DNA from: Phage NC-G
Length of the DNA: 64,000 nucleotides
Strand: one strand, 5' to 3'
Sequence record: MK310184
Shown: positions 16,667-61,559 of the stretch, piece after piece
Numbering within the stretch: the stretch's first letter is position 1
Layout: each line of letters begins with the position of its first letter
The notes under the pieces: model-generated
What the model was told of the DNA's origin: nothing
Seen by the model: only the letters and a program-made list of their open reading frames with translations
The model's database searches: none
Program-made: the position numbers and the translations under genes

Positions 16667-16933
16667 CTATGCAATCTTAACACGACGGTTGATGATATCA
16701 CGGAAGTCAATACGATTTTCTTGGATTTTCAGCCAGTTACCAGATTTGTCTTTGGTATGGGTAGAGTATTCACCGTTCCACCAGAAGTCGGTAGCATAAG
16801 CCATGGCTTCGTATTTCTTAACTAGTGCATTCACTGCATTACCGTTAGGATTGGAACCATATTTTTCTACCAGGGCTTTGATGTCTTTATCAAGAGCGGA
16901 AAGAGTAGTACGAATAAAGTTTAACTTGTTCAT
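16667..16933 (-). CDS. Hypothetical early protein (88 aa) encoded antisense between genes 23 and 24
   Basis: Minus-strand ORF; start taken at the ATG 8 nt downstream of GAGGAG within the conserved early-promoter cassette; occupies the locus where T4 carries segD (from memory). Confidence 0.55.
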   Translation of the reverse strand: MNKLNFIRTTLSALDKDIKALVEKYGSNPNGNAVNALVKKYEAMAYATDFWWNGEYSTHTKDKSGNWLKIQENRIDFRDIINRRVKIA

Positions 16934-16992
16934 TTTTAATCTCCTCATGTTTTGATAGGTCTATAGTAACATGTGATAACCTTGCTGTAAAC
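16934..16992 (-). promoter_or_regulatory. Early-promoter cassette (GTTTAC -35, TACTAT -10, conserved leader with GAGGAG)
   Basis: Minus-strand reading: GTTTAC-N18-TACTATAGACCTATCAAAACATGAGGAGATTAAAAATG; same cassette recurs at least six more times in the window. Confidence 0.65.
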
Positions 16993-16998
16993 AACTTT

Positions 16999-17006
16999 TA
17001 TAAATA
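16999..17006 (+). promoter_or_regulatory. Late promoter TATAAATA upstream of gene 24
   Basis: Exact TATAAATA 29 nt upstream of the gene 24 ATG. Confidence 0.7.
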
Positions 17007-17034
17007 AACATATACCCTCAATAAGGAAAGCGCA

Positions 17035-20632: not shown

Positions 20633-20633
20633 A

Positions 20634-21002
20634 TTATTTGCTTCCATAATCAATTTTAACTAATTTACCTTTAAGGTAACCATAATTTGAAGGTTTACAA
20701 TCAGACATATACATGCTTTCTACTAAGGTTTGGTGCCTTGCATGATGTATTTCTGTTTTCCATAATCCGATATTCGTAACTTCTTGGGCCCTAGGCATAA
20801 CTATAACAAACCCTAACCAAGATTTCCATATAACAGGACACAAATACGGGTCCTTCAATGATGAGAATTCGTGTTCCGTTATATTGCAATAGAGCCCGGT
20901 TAAAAACAGTTTCCAACTATAGAAGCTTGGTATCTTAATGGCGTATCGTTTCGTCAGGAAGACCTGCCGGGTTGCACCATTTCTTTTTCTGATAAATGGC
21001 AT
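20634..21002 (-). CDS. Hypothetical protein (24.2-position)
   Basis: 122-aa ORF translationally abutting rnlB; no recognisable motif. Confidence 0.5.
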
Positions 21003-21326: not shown

Positions 21327-21429
21327 AACAATTCTCTCGTTGAGTTGGTAAACCCATCTTAACATAGGATTTTTAACTTGTAAACAGGAATTTTGTACTT
21401 TAATGCAAAATGGGCCTTGCGGCCCATAA

Positions 21430-33141: not shown

Positions 33142-33199
33142 AATGTTCTCCTCATGTTTGTGTAAGGTAATAGTACCACATCCTTGTGGCGTTGTAAAC
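33142..33199 (-). promoter_or_regulatory. Early-promoter cassette upstream of ORF 32851-33141
   Basis: Minus strand: GTTTAC-N18-TACTAT...CATGAGGAGAACATT-ATG, with hairpin CCACAAGGATGTGG in the spacer. Confidence 0.6.
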
Positions 33200-35322
33200 T
33201 ACATTTTGAATTTATTTGATAAAGAAGAGATGTCCAAAGATGCAGCAAGGATTTCCATAGCCTCATTACTTTCTGAAACAGATTCTGAAACTAGGAATTC
33301 TTTAAACCCATTCATCAATTTAACTTCACCGGTTTCCATCAGATGGTCGCCATCGTAAACGGATTCGCTGAGTTCTGAAGGAGATGTCACTGTAGCTTCC
33401 ATAAGGTATTTGTGAGATACTCTATCATTCATAGCAAAAGCCGCTACTTTATCAACCTTCAACAATAACCCGCGCGGAAGGATAATTTCCGCTTCTTCGG
33501 CATATTCTGTAAGGTCGCCAGGAGCGATAACTTTAACTGCTTCAGCACCTCGAATAACCATACCAATTTCAGCAATCCTGTCTGCAGGGCCTTCAGGTGC
33601 AATTGGATTACCAAACTCGTCTTCTTCCCATTCTACCTCTTCGTCATCGACTTCACCTACGTCAGATGAACTACCACTGGCTAATTTAAACAACTCATCA
33701 GCGGAGGATAAAGAACCTTCATCACCAACAAAAACTGCTTGGTTGTCGAGGGCCATATAATTTTTACCAAATTCGCCAAAGATATTAGGCTTTAATGAAG
33801 CGGACACAAAGTTCTTAAAGTAAAATGTTTTGTTATCAATATTATGGCGCAGAATTTTGTATGGTAAATCCTGACCACGATACAAAATAGTACCCTTAGG
33901 AAGTTTAATACCCTTGGTAAATGCTGAGTCTAAATCCTTAATCAATTTAATAGCTGTTGTATTGTTTTCGGATTCAGGTTTACCTAAAAGGAATAAGTTC
34001 ATAGGAGCATATTCAGCCGCACAATATTCAATAATGGCATTACTTTCGTCTTTGGTCAAGCCCTTAGGTTTAATGAGCTCGCCTGAATAAGCATATGCAT
34101 CGCTAATAGAATCGTTAATCAGTTTATAAACGGCTTCCATAGCGAAAGCAATTCGGGATGCTTTCTCTGAAGGAGACCCCTGAAAACGGGCACTCAGGTT
34201 ATTAACAATTCTCTTAATAATATCCAGACTATTGGTAGTATTGATTTGAGAAAGGCCACTTAAAAGTCTATCGACTTCCGTATTAAAAAATGCCATATTA
34301 TTAGAGTAAATTTCAAACCCTTGTTTATCTCTATTAGCATAATTTAGTTTAAATTTACTATCAGTCATTAAAGCGTGCGTGAGAGCAATGGTGTATCTAA
34401 AGTTGGCAAGGTCCTCACTCTTAGATTTAAACTGAGAGGCCTGACGCATTTTAGTAATAGCACCTTTTTTAAAGTTCTGACTAATCTGCTCAATACCTTC
34501 GTTCTCAGGGCCTTCGGCCGAGTGAACAGGGACAGAAGCTTCAAACTCGTTATAAACCTGCAATTCTTTAGGTGATAAAGTTTCAGGTTCGGCAGTAGAA
34601 TACTGTGCTGCTGCAGCCATACGACGGGAAATCTTAGTACGAGAAATAACAGCCTTATCGGTACGTTTCTCTTCAACCTGTGCAATAGATGCCGCTACGG
34701 CTTCTACTTTACTTACGGCCTGGCCGGTTTTCTTAGAAACATAAACTTCACCGACTTTAGACTCAACCTTGGTATAAAGGTCTGCATCAATTTCAGGCAT
34801 ACCCTTGATATCTTCGATATTAGAACCACGACGTACTAAAAGGACGTAGGTATGTTTACCACTAAACTGGAACATATCATCGACAACTTTAAACTTACCA
34901 CCGGTACGTGCCATCGCCAAACGAGCTAATACACGCTGAACAGTAGGGCCCTTACCTTTCATTTTCTTGGTAGGGAAACGGAACAAAACCGCATCCATTT
35001 TAAGTTTGTTTACTTGTTCGTATACAGTATCGAAAATAGTATTCAGTGTACCAAGTGGGTCAGAACCAAGCCCGCCTTTGAGTTCGGCTGGAGCACCCTT
35101 GCTAGACAAACTCATTAAAATAACATGAACGTATTTGTCGCCAGGCTTAACCATTTTAATAGCGTCTCCTTGAGACGCATAAGATACCATACGAGCAACC
35201 AGGTTATCATTACCTGGCGCTTGGATAGAGAAAATCTGTGGGATACCTGAGCCTGGCTTAAGATTTGTTACTGGATAGTTTTTAGCTGAATCACTATCAA
35301 AAACTTCGTTTAAATTTTCCAT
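33199..35322 (-). CDS. Alt-like ADP-ribosyltransferase paralog (707 aa)
   Basis: Collinear with adjacent alt: shared N-terminal packaging region (LVARMVSYAS.GDAIK, FRFPTKKMKG.GP), catalytic-domain blocks YRGQ, FYFKNFVSASL, EIILPRGL, YDGDHLMETGE. Confidence 0.88.
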   Translation of the reverse strand: MENLNEVFDSDSAKNYPVTNLKPGSGIPQIFSIQAPGNDNLVARMVSYASQGDAIKMVKPGDKYVHVILMSLSSKGAPAELKGGLGSDPLGTLNTIFDTVYEQVNKLKMDAVLFRFPTKKMKGKGPTVQRVLARLAMARTGGKFKVVDDMFQFSGKHTYVLLVRRGSNIEDIKGMPEIDADLYTKVESKVGEVYVSKKTGQAVSKVEAVAASIAQVEEKRTDKAVISRTKISRRMAAAAQYSTAEPETLSPKELQVYNEFEASVPVHSAEGPENEGIEQISQNFKKGAITKMRQASQFKSKSEDLANFRYTIALTHALMTDSKFKLNYANRDKQGFEIYSNNMAFFNTEVDRLLSGLSQINTTNSLDIIKRIVNNLSARFQGSPSEKASRIAFAMEAVYKLINDSISDAYAYSGELIKPKGLTKDESNAIIEYCAAEYAPMNLFLLGKPESENNTTAIKLIKDLDSAFTKGIKLPKGTILYRGQDLPYKILRHNIDNKTFYFKNFVSASLKPNIFGEFGKNYMALDNQAVFVGDEGSLSSADELFKLASGSSSDVGEVDDEEVEWEEDEFGNPIAPEGPADRIAEIGMVIRGAEAVKVIAPGDLTEYAEEAEIILPRGLLLKVDKVAAFAMNDRVSHKYLMEATVTSPSELSESVYDGDHLMETGEVKLMNGFKEFLVSESVSESNEAMEILAASLDISSLSNKFKM

Positions 35323-41244: not shown

Positions 41245-41610
41245 TTAGATATCAAATTCATTCAGAACTACATCAAAGATTGCTTCCAGGTGTTCAGGTT
41301 TAGCACGGTTGCTCAGGATATGACGAATCCAGGTTTTAACCAGAAGCTTACGATTATCACCGTTCCAGCAAGGATGGGTACCTAAATCACGTTGACGGAA
41401 ATCATCGTCTAAAGCGATTTTAAAAGTAGAACCTTCCATAGTGATTGAAACCGTGATACCATTTTCAAAGCGCATATAAACGTAGTTAGGAGTCATGCAC
41501 TGTTCGATTTCGCACACTGTGCCGTTGTTGTGTTTCCACAGGCAAATAACTTCAGAAGAACCAGCGATACCGTTAGAAACATATTTACGTTCGAAGTTGA
41601 TGTAGTTCAT
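41245..41610 (-). CDS. Hypothetical protein (121 aa)
   Basis: ORF with conserved leader ccaaataatacgaaaacaaactggagaataaaATG shared with the next gene upstream. Confidence 0.5.
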   Translation of the reverse strand: MNYINFERKYVSNGIAGSSEVICLWKHNNGTVCEIEQCMTPNYVYMRFENGITVSITMEGSTFKIALDDDFRQRDLGTHPCWNGDNRKLLVKTWIRHILSNRAKPEHLEAIFDVVLNEFDI

Positions 41611-41683
41611 TTTATTCTCCAGTTTGTTTTCGTATTATTTGGTACAGGTCTATAATAACACAACCTGTACCAAAGTAAAACAT

Positions 41684-42016
41684 TTATTTCACAACATTCC
41701 AATTTTTCATATCAAGTTTACCAACTTTTTTCATCTGAGCAATCAGACGTTCAGCACGTGTACGGGCATTAACGTAATAGAATTCACCAATTTTGTTTTC
41801 TTCGATACGACCAGTAATTACAGTTTTCAGTTCATAAATCCAACCTGTAAAGAAGTTGTGAAGCTCGATGGTAAATGTGAAATCAGTACCCATACCTTCA
41901 GTTGTTTCAACTTCGATGATATCACCTTCAACTGCAGTCAGGACCCACATGGTTTCTTGATATTCACCGTTGAAACATTTAGCTTTAACAGATGCATTCA
42001 GGTTTACAGTTTTCAT
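41684..42016 (-). CDS. Hypothetical protein (110 aa)
   Basis: ORF with the same ~40-nt leader as gene 41245-41610 and an early-promoter cassette upstream. Confidence 0.5.
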   Translation of the reverse strand: MKTVNLNASVKAKCFNGEYQETMWVLTAVEGDIIEVETTEGMGTDFTFTIELHNFFTGWIYELKTVITGRIEENKIGEFYYVNARTRAERLIAQMKKVGKLDMKNWNVVK

Positions 42017-42068
42017 TTTATTCTCCAGTTTGTTTTCGTATTATTTGGTACATGTCTATAGTATCATG
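42017..42068 (-). promoter_or_regulatory. Early-promoter cassette variant (GTATAC -35, TACTAT -10)
   Basis: Minus strand GGTATAC-N17-TACTATAGACATGTACC plus conserved leader. Confidence 0.5.
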
Positions 42069-42115
42069 CCTACCGGAGATGTATACCCTTTTTTAAAGAT
42101 TTAGAAACAAAAATG

Positions 42116-44507: not shown

Positions 44508-44845
44508 TACATCACCACTAGATAAGCTGTGTTATTGGTTTCGACACGATATAAATCGGTACGAAGTTTAGTGATAGATTTCACACGTGAGGTTAATATA
44601 CCACAACCATCTGGGAAGCGTTTTTGTTTATCGAAAAATACTGCTGCTGGTATCCTATCACCAATTTCAACCGGAAGAAAAGTAGCCAGTACCGCACCAT
44701 ACATAGAAGTATGGATGCTTTGGAATTCTTCGCTCAGCTTAAAAAGGTCTTTGATATACTGAGTGGCCTTTTCAGAGAGACCTCGATGGTCTCCATCTTC
44801 GTCAGATTGTAAGGTGGCATTAACTGCTAGTTTTAAATTAAGCAT
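44507..44845 (-). CDS. Hypothetical protein (cd.1 position)
   Basis: ORF abutting cd; start uncertain (44845 or 44887). Confidence 0.4.
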   Translation of the reverse strand: MLNLKLAVNATLQSDEDGDHRGLSEKATQYIKDLFKLSEEFQSIHTSMYGAVLATFLPVEIGDRIPAAVFFDKQKRFPDGCGILTSRVKSITKLRTDLYRVETNNTAYLVVM

Positions 44846-45074
44846 CAATATATACTCGCTGCGCTTCGACCAGACCATCAGAACCAAGTTTTAACCGGGT
44901 AATCTGGTCGCCATTTTTAGGATTAACGATAACCAATACCGCCCGTGGTGATTCCTGAATTACTCGCAGAGTTGCATCAGGAAAACGTATAGAAACCTTA
45001 TTAATCAGGGCCTGAGCAAATTCTTTAACTTTAACTTGGAACTGCTCTACAGTAATAGGTTGTTCGCTCAGCAT
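44838..45074 (-). CDS. Hypothetical protein
   Basis: 78-aa ORF, overlaps neighbours by stop/start coupling. Confidence 0.45.
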   Translation of the reverse strand: MLSEQPITVEQFQVKVKEFAQALINKVSIRFPDATLRVIQESPRAVLVIVNPKNGDQITRLKLGSDGLVEAQRVYIDA

Positions 45075-47603: not shown

Positions 47604-47607
<4 letters not shown>

Positions 47608-48086
47608 ACACCAAGCTCCTTATAAAGTTCTTCACGACAAGTTTTAAGGATTTTACCTGATTCGTAAGCTGCACTTTCAGAAACATCACCAAGTGCAACA
47701 GCAGATTGCATTTGACCATGGCGCTTAGCCGCGTATTCAAAACTTTTTACTAGTTCGCGAATACGTTCTTTTTCATTGTACTCTTCAATGAATTCAGAGT
47801 ATTCCCAAACTGGACGCATCATACGATACCACTGTTGGACGGTAATATAATTACTTCCATCTAAATTAATAATCTGTGAAGGCTCAATAGCACCAGGAGC
47901 ATAAAAAGTTACCTGTCTTACTACATCAATACCGTCCACAATAGCCCAAGCAAAATCGAAAGTGGCCTTCTTTTCAATTGGTGTACTTGCACAGGACCCT
48001 AATTTTAAGAGCTTTTGTAATACAGGAGATTTAATACTTGAAATGTATTCAGGCTTAGCCACAAAACTGTTATCACGTAATGTCAT
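47604..48086 (-). CDS. Hypothetical protein (160 aa from SD-supported start)
   Basis: ORF between spanin genes and pseT.1; start set at ATG after GAGGAAATT SD. Confidence 0.45.
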
Positions 48087-48149
48087 AATAATTTCCTCAA
48101 TTTTTATAATCCGTAGGACCATTATACTCTGATCCCAAGAGTTTGTAAA

Positions 48150-48257
48150 CTACTTTCCAAAAATACCATTCATACACAGGCTGAACACGATACCAAAGCA
48201 AAAACATGCAGCACCGAATTTAAAAACACCCCACCCATCGATACAGGCTTCAATCAT
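48150..48257 (-). CDS. Possible hydrophobic micro-protein (35 aa), coupled to o-spanin stop
   Basis: Hand-translated MIEACIDGWGVFKFGAACFCFGIVFSLCMNGIFGK; ATG overlaps spanin stop (ATGA); single predicted TM-like segment. Confidence 0.3.
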   Translation of the reverse strand: MIEACIDGWGVFKFGAACFCFGIVFSLCMNGIFGK

Positions 48258-49382: not shown

Positions 49383-49441
49383 TTTGTTTTCTCCTCATTA
49401 GTTGGTAAGTCTATACTAACACATCATGAGGAGATGTAAAC
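49383..49441 (-). promoter_or_regulatory. Early-promoter cassette upstream of alc
   Basis: Minus strand GTTTAC-N17-TAGTATAGACTTACC...ATGAGGAGAAAACAAA-ATG. Confidence 0.6.
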
Positions 49442-50589
49442 TACTCTATCACAATTTCCTTCAAATATTTTTCAGGGATTTGGGCCTTATGATTTTTCAA
49501 GAACACTGAGTTAATCTGGTCCATGACCGTATCATAATTAATACCGTCTACGTACGCCTGCATAAGAATAGAGAACAACCCTGGGAAGTCTTTGAGGATT
49601 AACTGACCGGTAACAGCATAGTCCTTACGGTCACGGCCCTTGAGCTGAGAATATGCTGCTTCTAACAAAGCCAAAGACTGTTCTAAGTAGTCTAAATGAA
49701 TACGTTCAAATGCATTGATTTTCTCAATAGCAAACGAATCCGCACTGAACAAACCTCGGAGGTCATCGGTTCCACCAGCCACTACAACTTCAAACAAACG
49801 CTCATTATTGTTAATGGAATCCTTGGTATGATGCAGTGCGCTATACCAAGCGGTTTTGAGTTTAAAGAACGTGCCATCTTTAAGTACAAAGATAAAGCCT
49901 TCAATACCCTCTTGTTTACGGATATTGTCAACAAAATCGCCTTCAGAGAGTTCGTAGCTTTTAACCAAATGCTTACGCAGAGCGCCATCTTTAAACAGTT
50001 CAGCGTAAGGGATATACTCGCCCGTTTCATTATTACGAACGTTCAGTAAGATAAGGTTTGTTTCTTGGTAAGCCAGCACAATACGGTTAGTAGGCGAAAC
50101 ATACTCGAGGTTGCATGTATAACCTGCTTTAGTAATTTCTTCTAAACGAGCAGCGAAGGCTTCGTTTTCAGGGAGACGAAGGAACCGTAAAGAATCATGC
50201 ACCATCGACGAATGGATAGAGCCTTTAGATTTAACGGAAAGATATTGTCTGTCCATGAAGGTAGAAATCAAGGACCCATCTTCCTTAGCCATTACAAGGT
50301 CAATATTTTCTTTTGATAAATCCAAACCGATAGTCAATGGGTTTTCATCGAGATTAAAGAACTTTTGCATAGGACGAGCAGCGATACGTACAGGACCGTT
50401 CTCGCCCATCTCAAACATAATGCCTCGGCACTCTAGTGCGCCGTCTTCCAACCAATCGCTGTACGATGCATAGTTATAACTAAAGATGCGATAGTTGACT
50501 CCTAGCGCACTCTGGAAGTCTTTAAAGAAGAACTTAGATTTAGTTGAGTTTTTAACCAAAGCCATCAAGTTATCATATAATTCAATCAT
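49441..50589 (-). CDS. rnlA: RNA ligase 1 (Rnl1, tRNA repair ligase)
   Basis: YRIFSYNYASYSDWL, ECRGIMFEM and adenylation lysine in KEDGSLIS match T4 Rnl1; 382 aa. Confidence 0.95.
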   Translation of the reverse strand: MIELYDNLMALVKNSTKSKFFFKDFQSALGVNYRIFSYNYASYSDWLEDGALECRGIMFEMGENGPVRIAARPMQKFFNLDENPLTIGLDLSKENIDLVMAKEDGSLISTFMDRQYLSVKSKGSIHSSMVHDSLRFLRLPENEAFAARLEEITKAGYTCNLEYVSPTNRIVLAYQETNLILLNVRNNETGEYIPYAELFKDGALRKHLVKSYELSEGDFVDNIRKQEGIEGFIFVLKDGTFFKLKTAWYSALHHTKDSINNNERLFEVVVAGGTDDLRGLFSADSFAIEKINAFERIHLDYLEQSLALLEAAYSQLKGRDRKDYAVTGQLILKDFPGLFSILMQAYVDGINYDTVMDQINSVFLKNHKAQIPEKYLKEIVIE

Positions 50590-54475: not shown

Positions 54476-54603
54476 AATTTCCTCAATATGTTAGGTTCTA
54501 CAATTATTCTATCATAGAACCTGTTAAGCATGGACTGATATTTATAGAATGAAATTCAGTCCGACCATAATAACCAAAAACAGAGTACAGATTATTTGAA
54601 TTT

Positions 54604-56385
<1,782 letters not shown>

Positions 56386-56395
56386 TATATTTTCC

Positions 56396-56635
56396 TCACG
56401 CTTTCTTAGCGATTTTCCAGTCAGCTTTGAACTGGTCAACATCAGAGTGGTGAATCCAGAAACCAGATGATATACCATCTTCATAAAGAGGACAGCCGTC
56501 ACACTCATCTTTCCAACCCATTGCACACAAAGTTTCTTCAGCTTTTTCCAGAGCTTCAGGGTTGTTACCTTGGATTGTGAAGTACCATTTGCCTTTAACT
56601 TCAGAATCGTTGATTGATTCGCGTTGTAATTTCAT
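56396..56635 (-). CDS. Hypothetical small Cys-rich protein (79 aa)
   Basis: ORF with early-promoter cassette upstream; CAMGWKDECDGCP motif. Confidence 0.5.
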   Translation of the reverse strand: MKLQRESINDSEVKGKWYFTIQGNNPEALEKAEETLCAMGWKDECDGCPLYEDGISSGFWIHHSDVDQFKADWKIAKKA

Positions 56636-56681
56636 TTTATTCTCCTCAAGTTGATAAGGCTATAGTATCACTACCATAGCC
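56636..56681 (-). promoter_or_regulatory. Early-promoter cassette
   Basis: Minus strand GTTTAC-N18-TACTATAGCCTTATCAACTTGAGGAGAATAAA-ATG. Confidence 0.6.
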
Positions 56682-56693
56682 TGTCGTAAACAA

Positions 56694-56921
56694 TTATTTT
56701 TGAATTAAGCCCATATAAAATTCAGCATCTTCAGCATGCATACCATCACAATACTCGTCAGCCATAAAACGAGTCAGGTCTTCAAGAGGACCTTGGATTT
56801 CAATTTGGATACTAAAGAATTGAGTATCTTTGATGTAAGCCATACTCAAAGAAGGATAACGATTACGGATAACTTCGTAAGTGTATTCAAAATCAACGAT
56901 ATCAATATTAACCTTAGCCAT
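56694..56921 (-). CDS. Hypothetical small protein (75 aa)
   Basis: ORF with early-promoter cassette upstream. Confidence 0.5.
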
Positions 56922-56980
56922 TTTATTTTCCTCATGTAGTTGATAGGTCTATAGTATCTCAACCATAGACCATTGTAAAC
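56922..56980 (-). promoter_or_regulatory. Early-promoter cassette
   Basis: Minus strand GTTTAC-N18-TACTATAGACCTATCAACTACATGAGGAAAATAAA-ATG. Confidence 0.6.
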
Positions 56981-56981
56981 A

Positions 56982-57254
56982 TTATTTTTGAATTTTATCG
57001 AGCCATTTACCAAGTTTAATCATTTCTTTAGTAGCTTTTTCCATACTTCTGAACTTGACCAATAGAGGATAAGTATCTACACCCATAACTAAAGTGGTTA
57101 CAAGACTATGCTCGCCTACAAGCCATAATGAATATGTTTGGATATCAAGTCCGTAATTTCGGTCTTTATGGACACGTACACCCATCACTTCAAACTGTTT
57201 ACTGGCTTTTTCTACTGCATCCAGGAAATCATCTTTAGTCATATTAAATTCCAA
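56982..57254 (-). CDS. Hypothetical small protein (90 aa)
   Basis: ORF in frd-32 small-gene array. Confidence 0.45.
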   Translation of the reverse strand: MEFNMTKDDFLDAVEKASKQFEVMGVRVHKDRNYGLDIQTYSLWLVGEHSLVTTLVMGVDTYPLLVKFRSMEKATKEMIKLGKWLDKIQK

Positions 57255-57609
57255 AAGTAGCTTTAATCAAGGCAATGACTTCAGCAGCATTTTTGTGATT
57301 AACCTGCACATGAATGGTTTGTGTATCAACTACAGGAGCATTCTCATCCACTTCTAAGAAATATTGGAATTCGCCTTCAGCGAGTTCAAAGTAATCATCG
57401 CCGTTATCCAGACTATCAAGGATGGTGCCATCTTTCATTTCAACTTTTTCAACAAAATAATCGCCTTCAACAAAGCTCATATCCAGAACTTTAAAGGTGT
57501 CACCACACTCTGCCATCCGCTTAACCATAAGTGCATTATCATCTGGACAGTCTGCAATAAAATGTTTTTTAGCAGCAGGGTCTAATACGTAAATTTTACC
57601 AGTTTCCAT
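57244..57609 (-). CDS. Hypothetical protein (121 aa from cassette-supported start)
   Basis: Start at METGKIYV... ATG directly after conserved cassette leader. Confidence 0.5.
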   Translation of the reverse strand: METGKIYVLDPAAKKHFIADCPDDNALMVKRMAECGDTFKVLDMSFVEGDYFVEKVEMKDGTILDSLDNGDDYFELAEGEFQYFLEVDENAPVVDTQTIHVQVNHKNAAEVIALIKATFGI

Positions 57610-57666
57610 TTTTATTTCCTCATGTTTTGATAGGTCTATAGTATCATGTTTAAAGGGGTTGTAAAC
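57610..57666 (-). promoter_or_regulatory. Early-promoter cassette
   Basis: Minus strand GTTTAC-N17-TACTATAGACCTATCAAAACATGAGGAAATAAAA-ATG. Confidence 0.6.
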
Positions 57667-57682
57667 CATTAAATGCCAAAAA

Positions 57683-57702
57683 GGGAAGACCGAAGTCTTC
57701 CC
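57683..57702 (-). terminator. Hairpin terminator after gene 32 (GGGAAGAC-CGAA-GUCUUCCC)
   Basis: gggaagaccgaagtcttccc palindrome 17 nt 3' of the gene 32 stop on the minus strand. Confidence 0.7.
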
Positions 57703-57718
57703 ATTATAAATCAATAAC

Positions 57719-58630
57719 TTATAGACCAGCTAACAGGTCGTCCAGACCATCGTCATCAGAAGGACTTACTGACGGCTCAGGAGTAGTGGAACGGGCCGGT
57801 GTAGACGGTTTGGAGTCATATGCATCAAGGTCTGCACTGAATGCGTCCAGGTCATCACCAATCTTATCAGCGGCTGCAGAAGCTTTAGCGGCAGCACCAC
57901 CAAGAGCAGCTGTACCAACAACTTTCTTAAACTTAGCTTCGTTAGTTTCGAATGATTTGAAATCGAGCAGTTTAGAAAGGTCGTGCATTTCTTCCATCAA
58001 TTTGGCTTGGTAAGCTTCATCATTGATGTTAGGAATTTCAGACTGACCCATGAATTTGGAATCGTCGTAGTTTTTGAAGTCGCCAACTTTCTTAGATTTT
58101 AGTACGAAGTTCGCACCATCAAACGGACATGTTACGTCAACCGGCACTTCACCAATATCGGTATCAACTTCAACCATCTGGTTGATTTTATCCATAATTT
58201 TCTGACCGAAACGGAATTTAAACACTTTACCTTCGTTAGCAGGCACTGCACTATCCTTAATAACAAGGATGTTAGCCCAGAAGGAAGTTTTACGTTTCAT
58301 CAGTTTGTATTCGGCGTTATTAGTATTAAAGGTATCGTTCTGGTTCATGTATTTACATACAGGACAAGAATCGAAATCACCATGAGTAGACGTGCAGTTT
58401 TCAATATACCATTGACCATTTTTCTTAAAGCCGTGGTTAACGAGCTTAATGAATGGAGATGGATTTTCTTCGTTTTTCGAAGGTAGGAAACGAATTACCG
58501 CAGTACCAACACCATTGTCGTCTTTCAATTTCCATTCAGCTTTATCATCGGAAGAGAAAGAAGAGCCACCTTTCATTGCAGACAGTTGAGCAGCCAGTTG
58601 GGAAGGATCGCGACGTTTAAACATAGACAT
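57719..58630 (-). CDS. 32: Single-stranded DNA-binding protein gp32
   Basis: FLPSKNE...HGFKKNG.WYIE.C.STHGD.DSCPVC (zinc site), acidic C-terminus [10 protein letters not shown]; 303 aa. Confidence 0.96.
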
Positions 58631-58697: not shown

Positions 58698-59327
58698 TTA
58701 ACACAGGTGATTTGAAGCAAAATTATTAAACTTAATATCAAGGTATGGGTTCCATCCTGATTTAAATTTATTTATCATGGTTATACCTACCATGTGAGGG
58801 CATTCTAAACCGGTTTCCTTGGCCATTAGCTTAGGACCTAATCTAGGATTTTCGTGCGGGCCTATATACCAATCATAAAATGATTTAGCATTTTTCCACA
58901 CTAAATGAGAACCCTTAGCAATAGCATTAGGATGTTCCCAAGGCTCTTTACCTTTAAGATGGGAGCTTTCTTTCATTTTACGTTTATGGCTTTCTGATTT
59001 AGATTTACCTTTTAAACAGGATTTAAAAGTTCCTTTAGCCATCGCCTTATTAAAGAATAAGGGCGATTTAACAACATCGTAGTGGTTATGGTAAAACTCT
59101 TCTTCATCTAAAGGCTCTTCACAAACATGAAGAACTTTGACTTTAGGACGTTCAGATAAGGCGGAAATAAATCTAGGTTGTTTGCATGACGACCAGTATT
59201 CTTTTCCGTGTGAATCAATTATAACACCATTTTTAATTAAGCAATTATGCTTAGAGCCAATATAAAAATATGGTGGAGTTTTATCTTTAATTCTCTGGCT
59301 AAACTCTAGCCAATATACTATATTCAA
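58698..59327 (-). CDS. Seg-like GIY-YIG homing endonuclease (segG position between 32 and 59)
   Basis: N-terminal IVYWLEF...YFYIGSK resembles a GIY-YIG motif with a longer spacer; basic K-rich C-terminal half; positional match to T4 segG from memory. Confidence 0.5.
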   Translation of the reverse strand: MNIVYWLEFSQRIKDKTPPYFYIGSKHNCLIKNGVIIDSHGKEYWSSCKQPRFISALSERPKVKVLHVCEEPLDEEEFYHNHYDVVKSPLFFNKAMAKGTFKSCLKGKSKSESHKRKMKESSHLKGKEPWEHPNAIAKGSHLVWKNAKSFYDWYIGPHENPRLGPKLMAKETGLECPHMVGITMINKFKSGWNPYLDIKFNNFASNHLC

Positions 59328-61484: not shown

Positions 61485-61551
61485 ATGAACCTCTGTTCAA
61501 GTAGTTGAGATGTCCATTATATCACGGCCTTAGGATAAGTAAACACTTTGC

Positions 61552-61559
61552 TATAAATA
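61552..61559 (+). promoter_or_regulatory. Late promoter TATAAATA upstream of gene 34
   Basis: Exact TATAAATA 33 nt upstream of the gene 34 ATG. Confidence 0.7.

Follow-up and report, generated by a model that had tools for sequence, protein, structure and literature searches.

Gene order and repeated cassettes in the frd region

The 64,000-nt stretch of Phage NC-G analysed here (sequence record MK310184; referred to as the window) was that of a Dhakavirus, a JS98-like T4-type coliphage, with about 94–96% identity, and carried a repeated putative early-promoter cassette on its minus strand. Identity with Dhakavirus genomes (JS98, UP19, dhaeg, IME281, Bp7, and others) was about 90–92% at 56.3–58.0 kb and up to 94.5% over the 40–64 kb stretch, with long collinear blocks sharing about 95–96% identity with JS98. 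Based on gene names assigned by mapping onto the JS98 and T4 annotation, the minus-strand order in the region was gene 32 (nt 57719–58630), a terminator, frd.2, an open reading frame (ORF) similar to JS98 orf232, frd.3, frd.1, an orf228-like ORF, and frd (nt 55464–56048). A terminator scan together with inspection of the sequence placed the intrinsic terminator (GGGAAGACTTCGGTCTTCCC followed by TTTTT) at nt 57683–57702, directly upstream of the frd.2 cassette. Frd.2 (nt 57244–57609) encoded a 121-amino-acid protein of Pfam family FRD2; the orf232-like ORF (nt 56982–57242; 86 amino acids, phrog_4423) would be co-transcribed with frd.2; frd.3 (nt 56694–56921) and frd.1 (nt 56396–56635) encoded proteins of 75 and 79 amino acids belonging to Pfam Phage_FRD3 and DUF5417, respectively. 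Three copies of the cassette at 56.6–57.7 kb, downstream of gene 32, drive frd.2/orf232, frd.3, and frd.1. The order 32-frd.2-orf232-frd.3-frd.1 in this lineage corresponded to 32-frd.3-frd.2-frd.1 in T4.

Each cassette was a module of 60–75 nt consisting of an A-rich tract, GTTTAC, a spacer of 17–18 nt, TGn-TAcTAT, the start region CTATCAAC, a strong Shine-Dalgarno (SD) sequence, and the ATG. The frd.2 cassette (nt 57610–57681) had its -35 GTTTAC at nt 57661–57666, the -10 TACTAT at nt 57638–57643, SD GAGGAA, and the ATG at nt 57609; the frd.3 cassette (nt 56922–56995) had the -35 at nt 56975–56980, the -10 at nt 56951–56956, and the same SD GAGGAA; the frd.1 cassette (nt 56636–56706) had the -35 at nt 56686–56691, the -10 at nt 56662–56667, and GGAGAATAAAA at nt 56635–56645. 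The orf232-like ORF (nt 56982–56996) and frd.3 (nt 56694–56708), which are unrelated, both ended in ATT CAA AAA TAA (Ile-Gln-Lys-stop), and the same codons also supply the A-rich UP tract of the promoter that follows, in the frd.3 and frd.1 cassettes, respectively.

Outside this region, cassettes preceded an ORF similar to JS98 orf173 between genes 23 and 24 (nt 16934–17007; -35 at 16987–16992, -10 at 16963–16968), alt.-3 (nt 33142–33214; -35 at 33194–33199, -10 at 33170–33175), gene 30.7 (nt 41611–41695; -35 TTTTAC at 41675–41680, -10 TATTAT at 41652–41657, GGAGAATAAAA at 41610–41620), gene 30.8 (nt 42017–42101; -35 GTATAC at 42081–42086, -10 at 42058–42063, GGAGAATAAAA at 42016–42026), a 160-amino-acid ORF at nt 47604–48086 (phrog_4482; cassette at nt 48087–48165, -35 at 48145–48150, -10 TATAAT at 48121–48126), alc (nt 49383–49456; -35 at 49436–49441, -10 TAGTAT at 49413–49418), and rnh (nt 61485–61559; -35 at 61539–61544, -10 TATAAT at 61516–61521). 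The genes driven by the cassettes belonged to conserved T4 families of unknown function (FRD2, FRD3, DUF5417, Gp30.7, and Gp30.8) or were known genes (alc and rnh). The preliminary description of this DNA, made from the sequence alone, had regarded the small ORFs as candidates for uncharacterised accessory functions; they were not orphans.

In total, ten good copies, all on the minus strand, were recognised in the window by a relaxed scan combined with reading of the sequence, their -35 boxes beginning at nt 16992, 33199, 41680, 42086, 48150, 49441, 56691, 56980, 57666, and 61544. Seven sites had been claimed previously, and all were present on the minus strand, each having been recorded by the last base before the ATG (ATGs at nt 16933, 33141, 42016, 49382, 56635, 56921, and 57609); the relaxed scan added those at nt 41680 (TTTTAC, gene 30.7), 48150 (TATAAT, 160-amino-acid ORF), and 61544 (TATAAT, rnh). 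Their recurrence was borne out by a motif search of the window, in which counts were far above chance and on the minus strand throughout: GTTTAC-N16-19-TACTATAG was matched 4 times versus 0.00 expected by chance, and GTTTAC-N17-18-TANTAT 6 times, all on the minus strand, versus 0.18. The -35 GTTTAC was exact in eight of the ten copies and had one mismatch in two, the copy at nt 42017 reading GTATAC, while CATGAGGA, proposed as part of the shared element, was found in about half of the copies and was missing from the remainder. Reading of the spacers revealed TGn before the -10 in eight of the ten copies, and the alignment showed an A-rich UP-like tract at about -40 to -50 and conservation of GTTTAC, TGn, TAcTAT, AGACCTATCAA, and GAGGAG-A-rich-ATG. 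The leader shared by genes 30.7 and 30.8, reported as an identical stretch of about 40 nt, contained an identical run of 41 nt, but the direct repeat in full (nt 41606–41660 and 42012–42066) measured 55 nt with 95% identity. The 17-mer TACTATAGACCTATCAA occurred three times in the window and 14 times in JS98, on the minus strand only, and in 73 stretches of IMG/VR DNA, mostly from JS98-like genomes.

A generic sigma-70 scan did not single out the cassettes (10 found versus 10.8 expected) because their -35 is GTTTAC and not TTGACA, and an Rfam search of the whole window gave no match. A candidate eleventh early promoter with a TAAGAT -10 was observed at about nt 21356–21385, ahead of a 24.3-like ORF. 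About 366 bp adjoining rnlB (nt 20633–21000) were missing from JS98; T4 has 24.2 at this place.

Predicted early promoter identity and comparison with known elements

The consensus of T4 early promoters comprises GTTTAC at -36 to -31, an A-rich tract at -40 to -44, a GT-rich/TGn stretch, and a -10 element (Nolan 2006; Hinton 2010). Every conserved block of the cassettes mapped to a known function, namely UP element, -35, extended -10, or RegB/S1 site, and according to the JS98 and T4 annotation, the cassettes preceded orthologues of T4 early genes and shared their orientation. The same promoter scan run on the complete JS98 genome and on T4 sequence detected about 44 and 29 such sites, respectively, nearly all on the early strand and ahead of early genes, and orthologous genes in the two phages carried the same architecture upstream. 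Judged by sequence, the cassettes are T4-type early promoters of the PeSL (promoter-early stem-loop) class, a known kind of element; the reading as early-promoter/leader cassettes given in the preliminary description was upheld by the match to the published consensus, the early-gene orthologues downstream, and agreement with the sequence definition of PeSLs. Re-identification of such promoters in one more JS98-like genome is in itself ordinary. Given the identity with the T4 early consensus, the A-rich UP-like tract, the -35 GTTTAC, the 17–18 nt spacer ending in TGn, and the -10 TAcTAT would recruit host sigma-70 RNA polymerase right after infection, and transcription is predicted to start about 7 nt past the -10, at the A of the conserved ATCAAC. 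The T4 GenBank record holds no promoter features, hence no mapped T4 starts were available from that record, and no global T4 start-site data set was found in the literature.

The promoters of the window and those of T4 were alike in consensus, spacing, strand, and gene neighbourhood, but each lineage had a house sequence of its own, TACTATAGACCTATCAA with a 17-nt spacer in the lineage of the window versus TACTATACAACTATCAA with an 18-nt spacer in T4. The JS98 house version TACTATAGACCT was present in 15 of 44 promoters, mostly with a 17-nt spacer, and the T4 version TACTATACAACT in 6 of 29, an 18-nt spacer being found in 27 of the 29.

In T4, the site efficiently cleaved by RegB/S1 is GGAGAAUAAAA, with the general form GGAGRAYARAA, whereas GGAA is cut very poorly (Durand 2006, PMC1702504). 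Three exact matches to GGAGRAYARAA were found in the window versus 0.54 expected, all abutting cassette ATGs, where as GGAGAATAAAA they form the SD of genes 30.7, 30.8, and frd.1; frd.2 and frd.3 differed in having GGAA in place of GGAG. The 3′ block of the cassettes is explained by this predicted RegB site. The short leader would thus end in a strong SD that in three copies equals the published RegB/S1 site, and expression from these would therefore be a brief pulse. GGAG is reportedly shielded from RegB by secondary structure; on the own transcripts of 30.7, 30.8, and frd.1, folding predicted the GGAG of the site to be unpaired.

PeSL cassettes have been described in RB49/phi1 and also in PST/T4 and nt-1/KVP40 (Arbiol 2010, PMC2839356; Comeau 2014, PMC4122927). 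Their stems, mostly located between the -35 and -10 or overlapping the -10, were treated as terminators/attenuators, translation or the ribosome not being mentioned in that account (Arbiol 2010, PMC2839356); attenuation, and mini-circles arising from recombination between copies, have been shown experimentally for RB49/phi1 only. The cassettes of the window resembled PeSLs in having a stop codon in the AT-rich tract, a sigma-70-type -35/-10, a stem-loop within or overlapping the promoter, an SD and an ATG, in being repeated many times on the early strand, and in that some promoter+gene modules varied among closely related phages, the breaks falling in the AT-rich tract or else after the -10 and before the ATG, with no clear enrichment over other gene junctions in the relatives compared here. 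As for the stem, four cassettes had clear ones (z ≤ -3; see below) and one a weaker one (z = -2.2), frd.2 had the gene 32 terminator directly upstream, and three were without a clear stem. They differed from the RB49 elements, whose stems, mostly GGGGATC...GATCCCC, fill the 17-nt spacer and lie wholly inside it, in the -35 GTTTAC and in that a subset of stems reached the SD. In Comeau 2014, the T4/PST stems were assigned to the region preceding the promoter and in-promoter stems went unreported, whereas those of the window were in the promoter.

Hairpins and pairing between spacer and leader

When the cassettes were folded from the -35 to the ATG and compared with shuffled sequences, z-scores of -3.0 to -3.9 were obtained for four of them, and two geometries were distinguished. 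In the first, represented by frd.1 (11-bp hairpin, nt 56657–56682; -15.7 kcal/mol, z = -3.08), frd.3 (10-bp hairpin, nt 56946–56971; -14.4 kcal/mol, z = -3.01), and gene 30.7 (hairpin at nt 41638–41674; -18.8 kcal/mol, z = -3.89), the 5′ half of the spacer paired with the -10 hexamer and discriminator, and the SD was open. In the second, the spacer paired with the gene's own SD, UCUCCUCAU with AUGAGGAGA in alc (helix at nt 49390–49434; z = -3.78) and UCUCCGG with CUGGAGA in the weaker hairpin of 30.8 (z = -2.18). Only small hairpins were present in the alt.-3 cassette (CCACA/UGUGG, within the spacer; z = -1.78) and that of the 160-amino-acid ORF (GGGAUC/GGUCCU), and those of frd.2 (z = -1.31), rnh (z = +0.62), and the orf173-like ORF (z = +0.67) had no significant hairpin. 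Masking of the SD had at first been suspected in the last of these and was dropped, the fold being no better than the shuffles.

With transcription taken to begin at the predicted +1, the SD of alc had an unpaired probability of 0.88 on its own transcript versus 0.10 on read-through RNA, and that of 30.8 had 0.86 versus 0.31. Similar behaviour is known from the T4 genes e, soc, 49, and I-TevI, where transcription starts within a hairpin and the SD is part of its 3′ arm, such that the long transcript is masked and the own transcript open; hairpins that mask the ribosome binding site and contain an internal promoter have been listed for late promoters only, those of these four genes (Uzan and Miller 2010). 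A masked SD was found for alc and 30.8, with the start predicted, and an open one for frd.1, frd.3, and 30.7. In e, soc, 49, and I-TevI, the internal promoter is late (TATAAATA) and translation is confined to late times; in the cassettes it is of the early sigma-70 type, the 5′ arm is the promoter spacer, and translation would be confined to the first minutes. The SD-pairing cassettes work like this family but are not members, because their internal promoter is of the early sigma-70 type and not the late TATAAATA.

By this analogy, a mechanism can be proposed in which the spacer, read weakly by sigma-70, would also encode the 5′ arm of a hairpin, with the 3′ arm supplied by the -10 and discriminator (frd.1, frd.3, and 30.7) or by the own SD (alc and 30.8). 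Since transcription would begin within the hairpin, only RNA from an upstream promoter could fold it; such read-through RNA may be attenuated or stabilised by hairpins of the -10 type, and by those of the SD type may be kept from translation and RegB attack at that cistron. We infer that read-through transcripts are insulated in this way from translation and RegB cleavage.

Complementarity between spacer and leader extended beyond the window. In JS98, the spacer paired with its own leader at a mean of -9.55 kcal/mol versus -6.97 for mismatched pairs (permutation p ≤ 5e-5), the own leader being the best partner for 12 of 44 promoters; the T4 values were -10.09 versus -6.90 kcal/mol (z = -6.9, p ≤ 5e-5), and compared with shuffled spacers, z was -12 in JS98 and -9 in T4. 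With the register set by CTCC/GGAG alone, 4.72 of 7 flanking positions paired versus 3.08 of 7 in permuted pairs (p ≤ 5e-5). The helices were distinct in sequence, including CTGTAG/CTACAG, CATTAG/CTAATG, CAGTAG/CTACTG, CTCATG/CATGAG, CTCTAGTTG/CAACTAGAG, CTCTGGTT/AACCAGAG, CGGTGGTT/AACCACTG, and TGGCGGTT/AACCGCCT. That of regB was kept with different sequences, UUUUCCUCUUGACUG/CAGUUAAGAGGAGAA in T4 and AUCUCCUGUAG/CUACAGGAGAU in JS98, and in the T4/JS98 orthologues of dexA, nrdC.8, and ndd.4 the helix was likewise kept while the compensating sequences differed. RNAalifold applied to eleven such cassettes, hand-picked for showing the feature, predicted the helix between spacer and SD, and 9 of its 16 pairs showed compensatory changes. 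In IME341, new promoter alleles ahead of frd.1 and of a frd.2 copy differed in sequence, and each had a hairpin over the -10. No complementarity between spacer and SD was detected in RB49 (50 kb, 100–150 kb including the PeSL-rich region; -6.18 kcal/mol for matched versus -5.96 for permuted pairs, p = 0.29).

It is conceivable, with slightly less than an even chance in our estimation, that in T4 and closely related phages, not in RB49, many early promoters have a spacer that doubles as an anti-SD arm and restricts translation and RegB exposure to transcripts from the own promoter. No description of early-promoter spacers as anti-SD arms was found in the literature searched, which included little of the older work on T4, where a prior description is possible; the covarying pairing of promoter spacer and SD may be the one new feature here. 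If true, it would amount to a hard-wired switch limiting toxic takeover enzymes (regB, dexA, denV, alc, ndd.4, modB, and nrdC.8) to the first minutes, the converse of the switch that confines genes e and soc to late times, and would account for part of the extra regions of consensus in T4 early promoters that have been mentioned without explanation (Hinton 2010; Nolan 2006). In T4 itself, the pairing at regB, dexA, denV, nrdC.8, and ndd.4 offers a testable hypothesis for how dense co-directional early genes are expressed independently of read-through.

Exchange between cassettes and competing explanations

The cassettes had also been described as mobile modules that shuffle genes. When the 40–64 kb stretch was compared with five relatives (JS98, Bp7, IME341, UP19, and IME281) and indel events were tallied by hand, about 15 distinct indels or replacements were found, about four of which had a breakpoint at a cassette. 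Among these, the 160-amino-acid ORF at nt 47604–48086, missing in Bp7 and IME281 and replaced in JS98, was inserted exactly between the cassette ATG and the ATG of the next gene. The other three concerned IME341, which had a divergent 30.8 allele bounded by the two cassettes with the repeated leader, a divergent frd.2 allele starting just inside the ORF, and an extra promoter+frd.2+promoter unit between frd.3 and frd.1, at which homology stopped at the frd.3 stop codon/UP tract and resumed at GGAGAATAAAATG. Events at promoter-less junctions involved a cd.1-like gene, nrdA.1, a small ORF between td and frd, orf228/229, and a frd.2b paralogue, and further ones without a cassette an intron and a homing-endonuclease gene. 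The share at cassettes was about that expected from the fraction of gene junctions bearing one. There was thus no clear enrichment over other gene junctions, although exchange between cassettes was evident from homogenisation within lineages, from mosaic spacers, and from the extra frd.2 module in IME341; that cassettes are not preferred indel breakpoints in this genus tempers the idea of mobile modules, and their role in gene shuffling is real but modest here.

Within each lineage, the cassettes evolve in concert, and therefore recombine, and promoter+gene modules do change place. The T4 denV promoter (L096:15353-15413) was of the JS98 house type, with a 17-nt spacer, TACTATAGACCTATCAA, and the same SD-pairing helix, and was the only copy of TACTATAGACCTATCAA in the T4 sequence examined, which suggests transfer of a cassette between lineages. 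The frd.3 spacer was a mosaic among the relatives, that of Bp7 being a generic atctgctttaaacatga without a hairpin. T4, for its part, carries a repeated leader of about 40 nt, acaactatcaactactgatacggatttggagaataaaATG, ahead of several unrelated genes (imm.1, nrdC.10, and the denB region), comparable to the 30.7/30.8 leader repeat.

Taken together, each copy is probably a self-contained early module, in many copies with a hairpin that would insulate it from read-through, and since the modules resemble one another, homologous exchange would occasionally move, swap, or homogenise promoter+gene units as a by-product and not as dedicated mobility. An alternative explanation, that the copies are plain strong early promoters, similar by convergent functional constraint and with no role in recombination or insulation, would accommodate the known functional element in each conserved block, the orthologous positions in T4 and JS98 (e.g. 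frd.1, 30.7, 30.8, alt.-3, and rnh), and the location of about 11 of the 15 or so local indels at promoter-less junctions. It is nevertheless unlikely, as T4 and JS98 share the host polymerase and yet have each homogenised their own -10/discriminator and spacer length, T4 denV carries a cassette of the JS98 type, the 30.7/30.8 leaders share 55 nt at 95% identity here and not in T4, and covarying complementarity between spacer and own leader is unexplained by promoter function alone. Translational coupling is another conceivable function of the hairpins that sequester the SD: on polycistronic RNA, the downstream gene would be translated only once the helix had been opened by a ribosome completing the preceding ORF. 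This would fit the stop codons abutting the -35 in several cassettes (e.g. rnlA-alc, frd.3-frd.1, and orf232-frd.3), where the initial bases of the spacer would be covered by a ribosome in termination. Pairing of this kind is, however, also seen in many cassettes preceded by a terminator or by a lengthy non-coding stretch (e.g. 30.8 in the window and the JS98 orf34 promoter), and coupling is considered quite improbable. The hairpins were on average stronger where an upstream T-run was absent, which fits coupling and insulation equally.

The inverted repeats might instead act as DNA, as cruciform/hairpin hot spots for recombination or nucleases or as quasi-palindromes in templated mutation, with no role in read-through. 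A recombination protein was speculated to target the PeSL stem (Arbiol 2010), the palindrome arms are perfect in duplex DNA, and some exchange breakpoints were at cassette edges. However, one class of helix always ended on the SD of the same gene and was kept in orthologues with different sequences, for which an RNA rationale is obvious and a DNA rationale is not, and the sense-strand helices tolerated G-T (G-U) about ten times more than A-C, evidence that is itself weak; a purely DNA-level role is accordingly the least credible of these explanations, and very improbable.

Several observations weigh against the self-contained, insulated module. Three to five of the ten cassettes were without a significant hairpin, those of the orf173-like ORF, rnh, frd.2, and the ORF at 48 kb showing none; the hairpins overlapping the -10 had no U-tract, were not canonical terminators, and left the SD free; at stop codons adjoining the -35, the 5′ arm could be melted by a ribosome in the course of termination, giving coupling and not insulation; and most nearby indels did not involve cassettes. 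The start sites of this phage were placed from the consensus, the RNAalifold set was a selected one, and the ratio of G-U to A-C within helices, 30:3 versus 35:10 in mismatched controls, favours RNA-level selection on the sense strand only weakly.

Compared with JS98, three differences had no promoter at the breakpoints: the cd.1-like gene (nt 44508–44854) was present in the window, whereas nrdA.1 (about 287 bp, at about nt 54545) and the small ORF between td and frd (nt 55468–55569) were missing. Between genes 32 and 59, a minus-strand ORF of 209 amino acids (nt 58698–59327) matched a homing-endonuclease family (phrog_7504, E = 5e-67); it was missing in JS98, UP19, IME341, and IME281 and divergent in Bp7, and T4 has segG at that junction.

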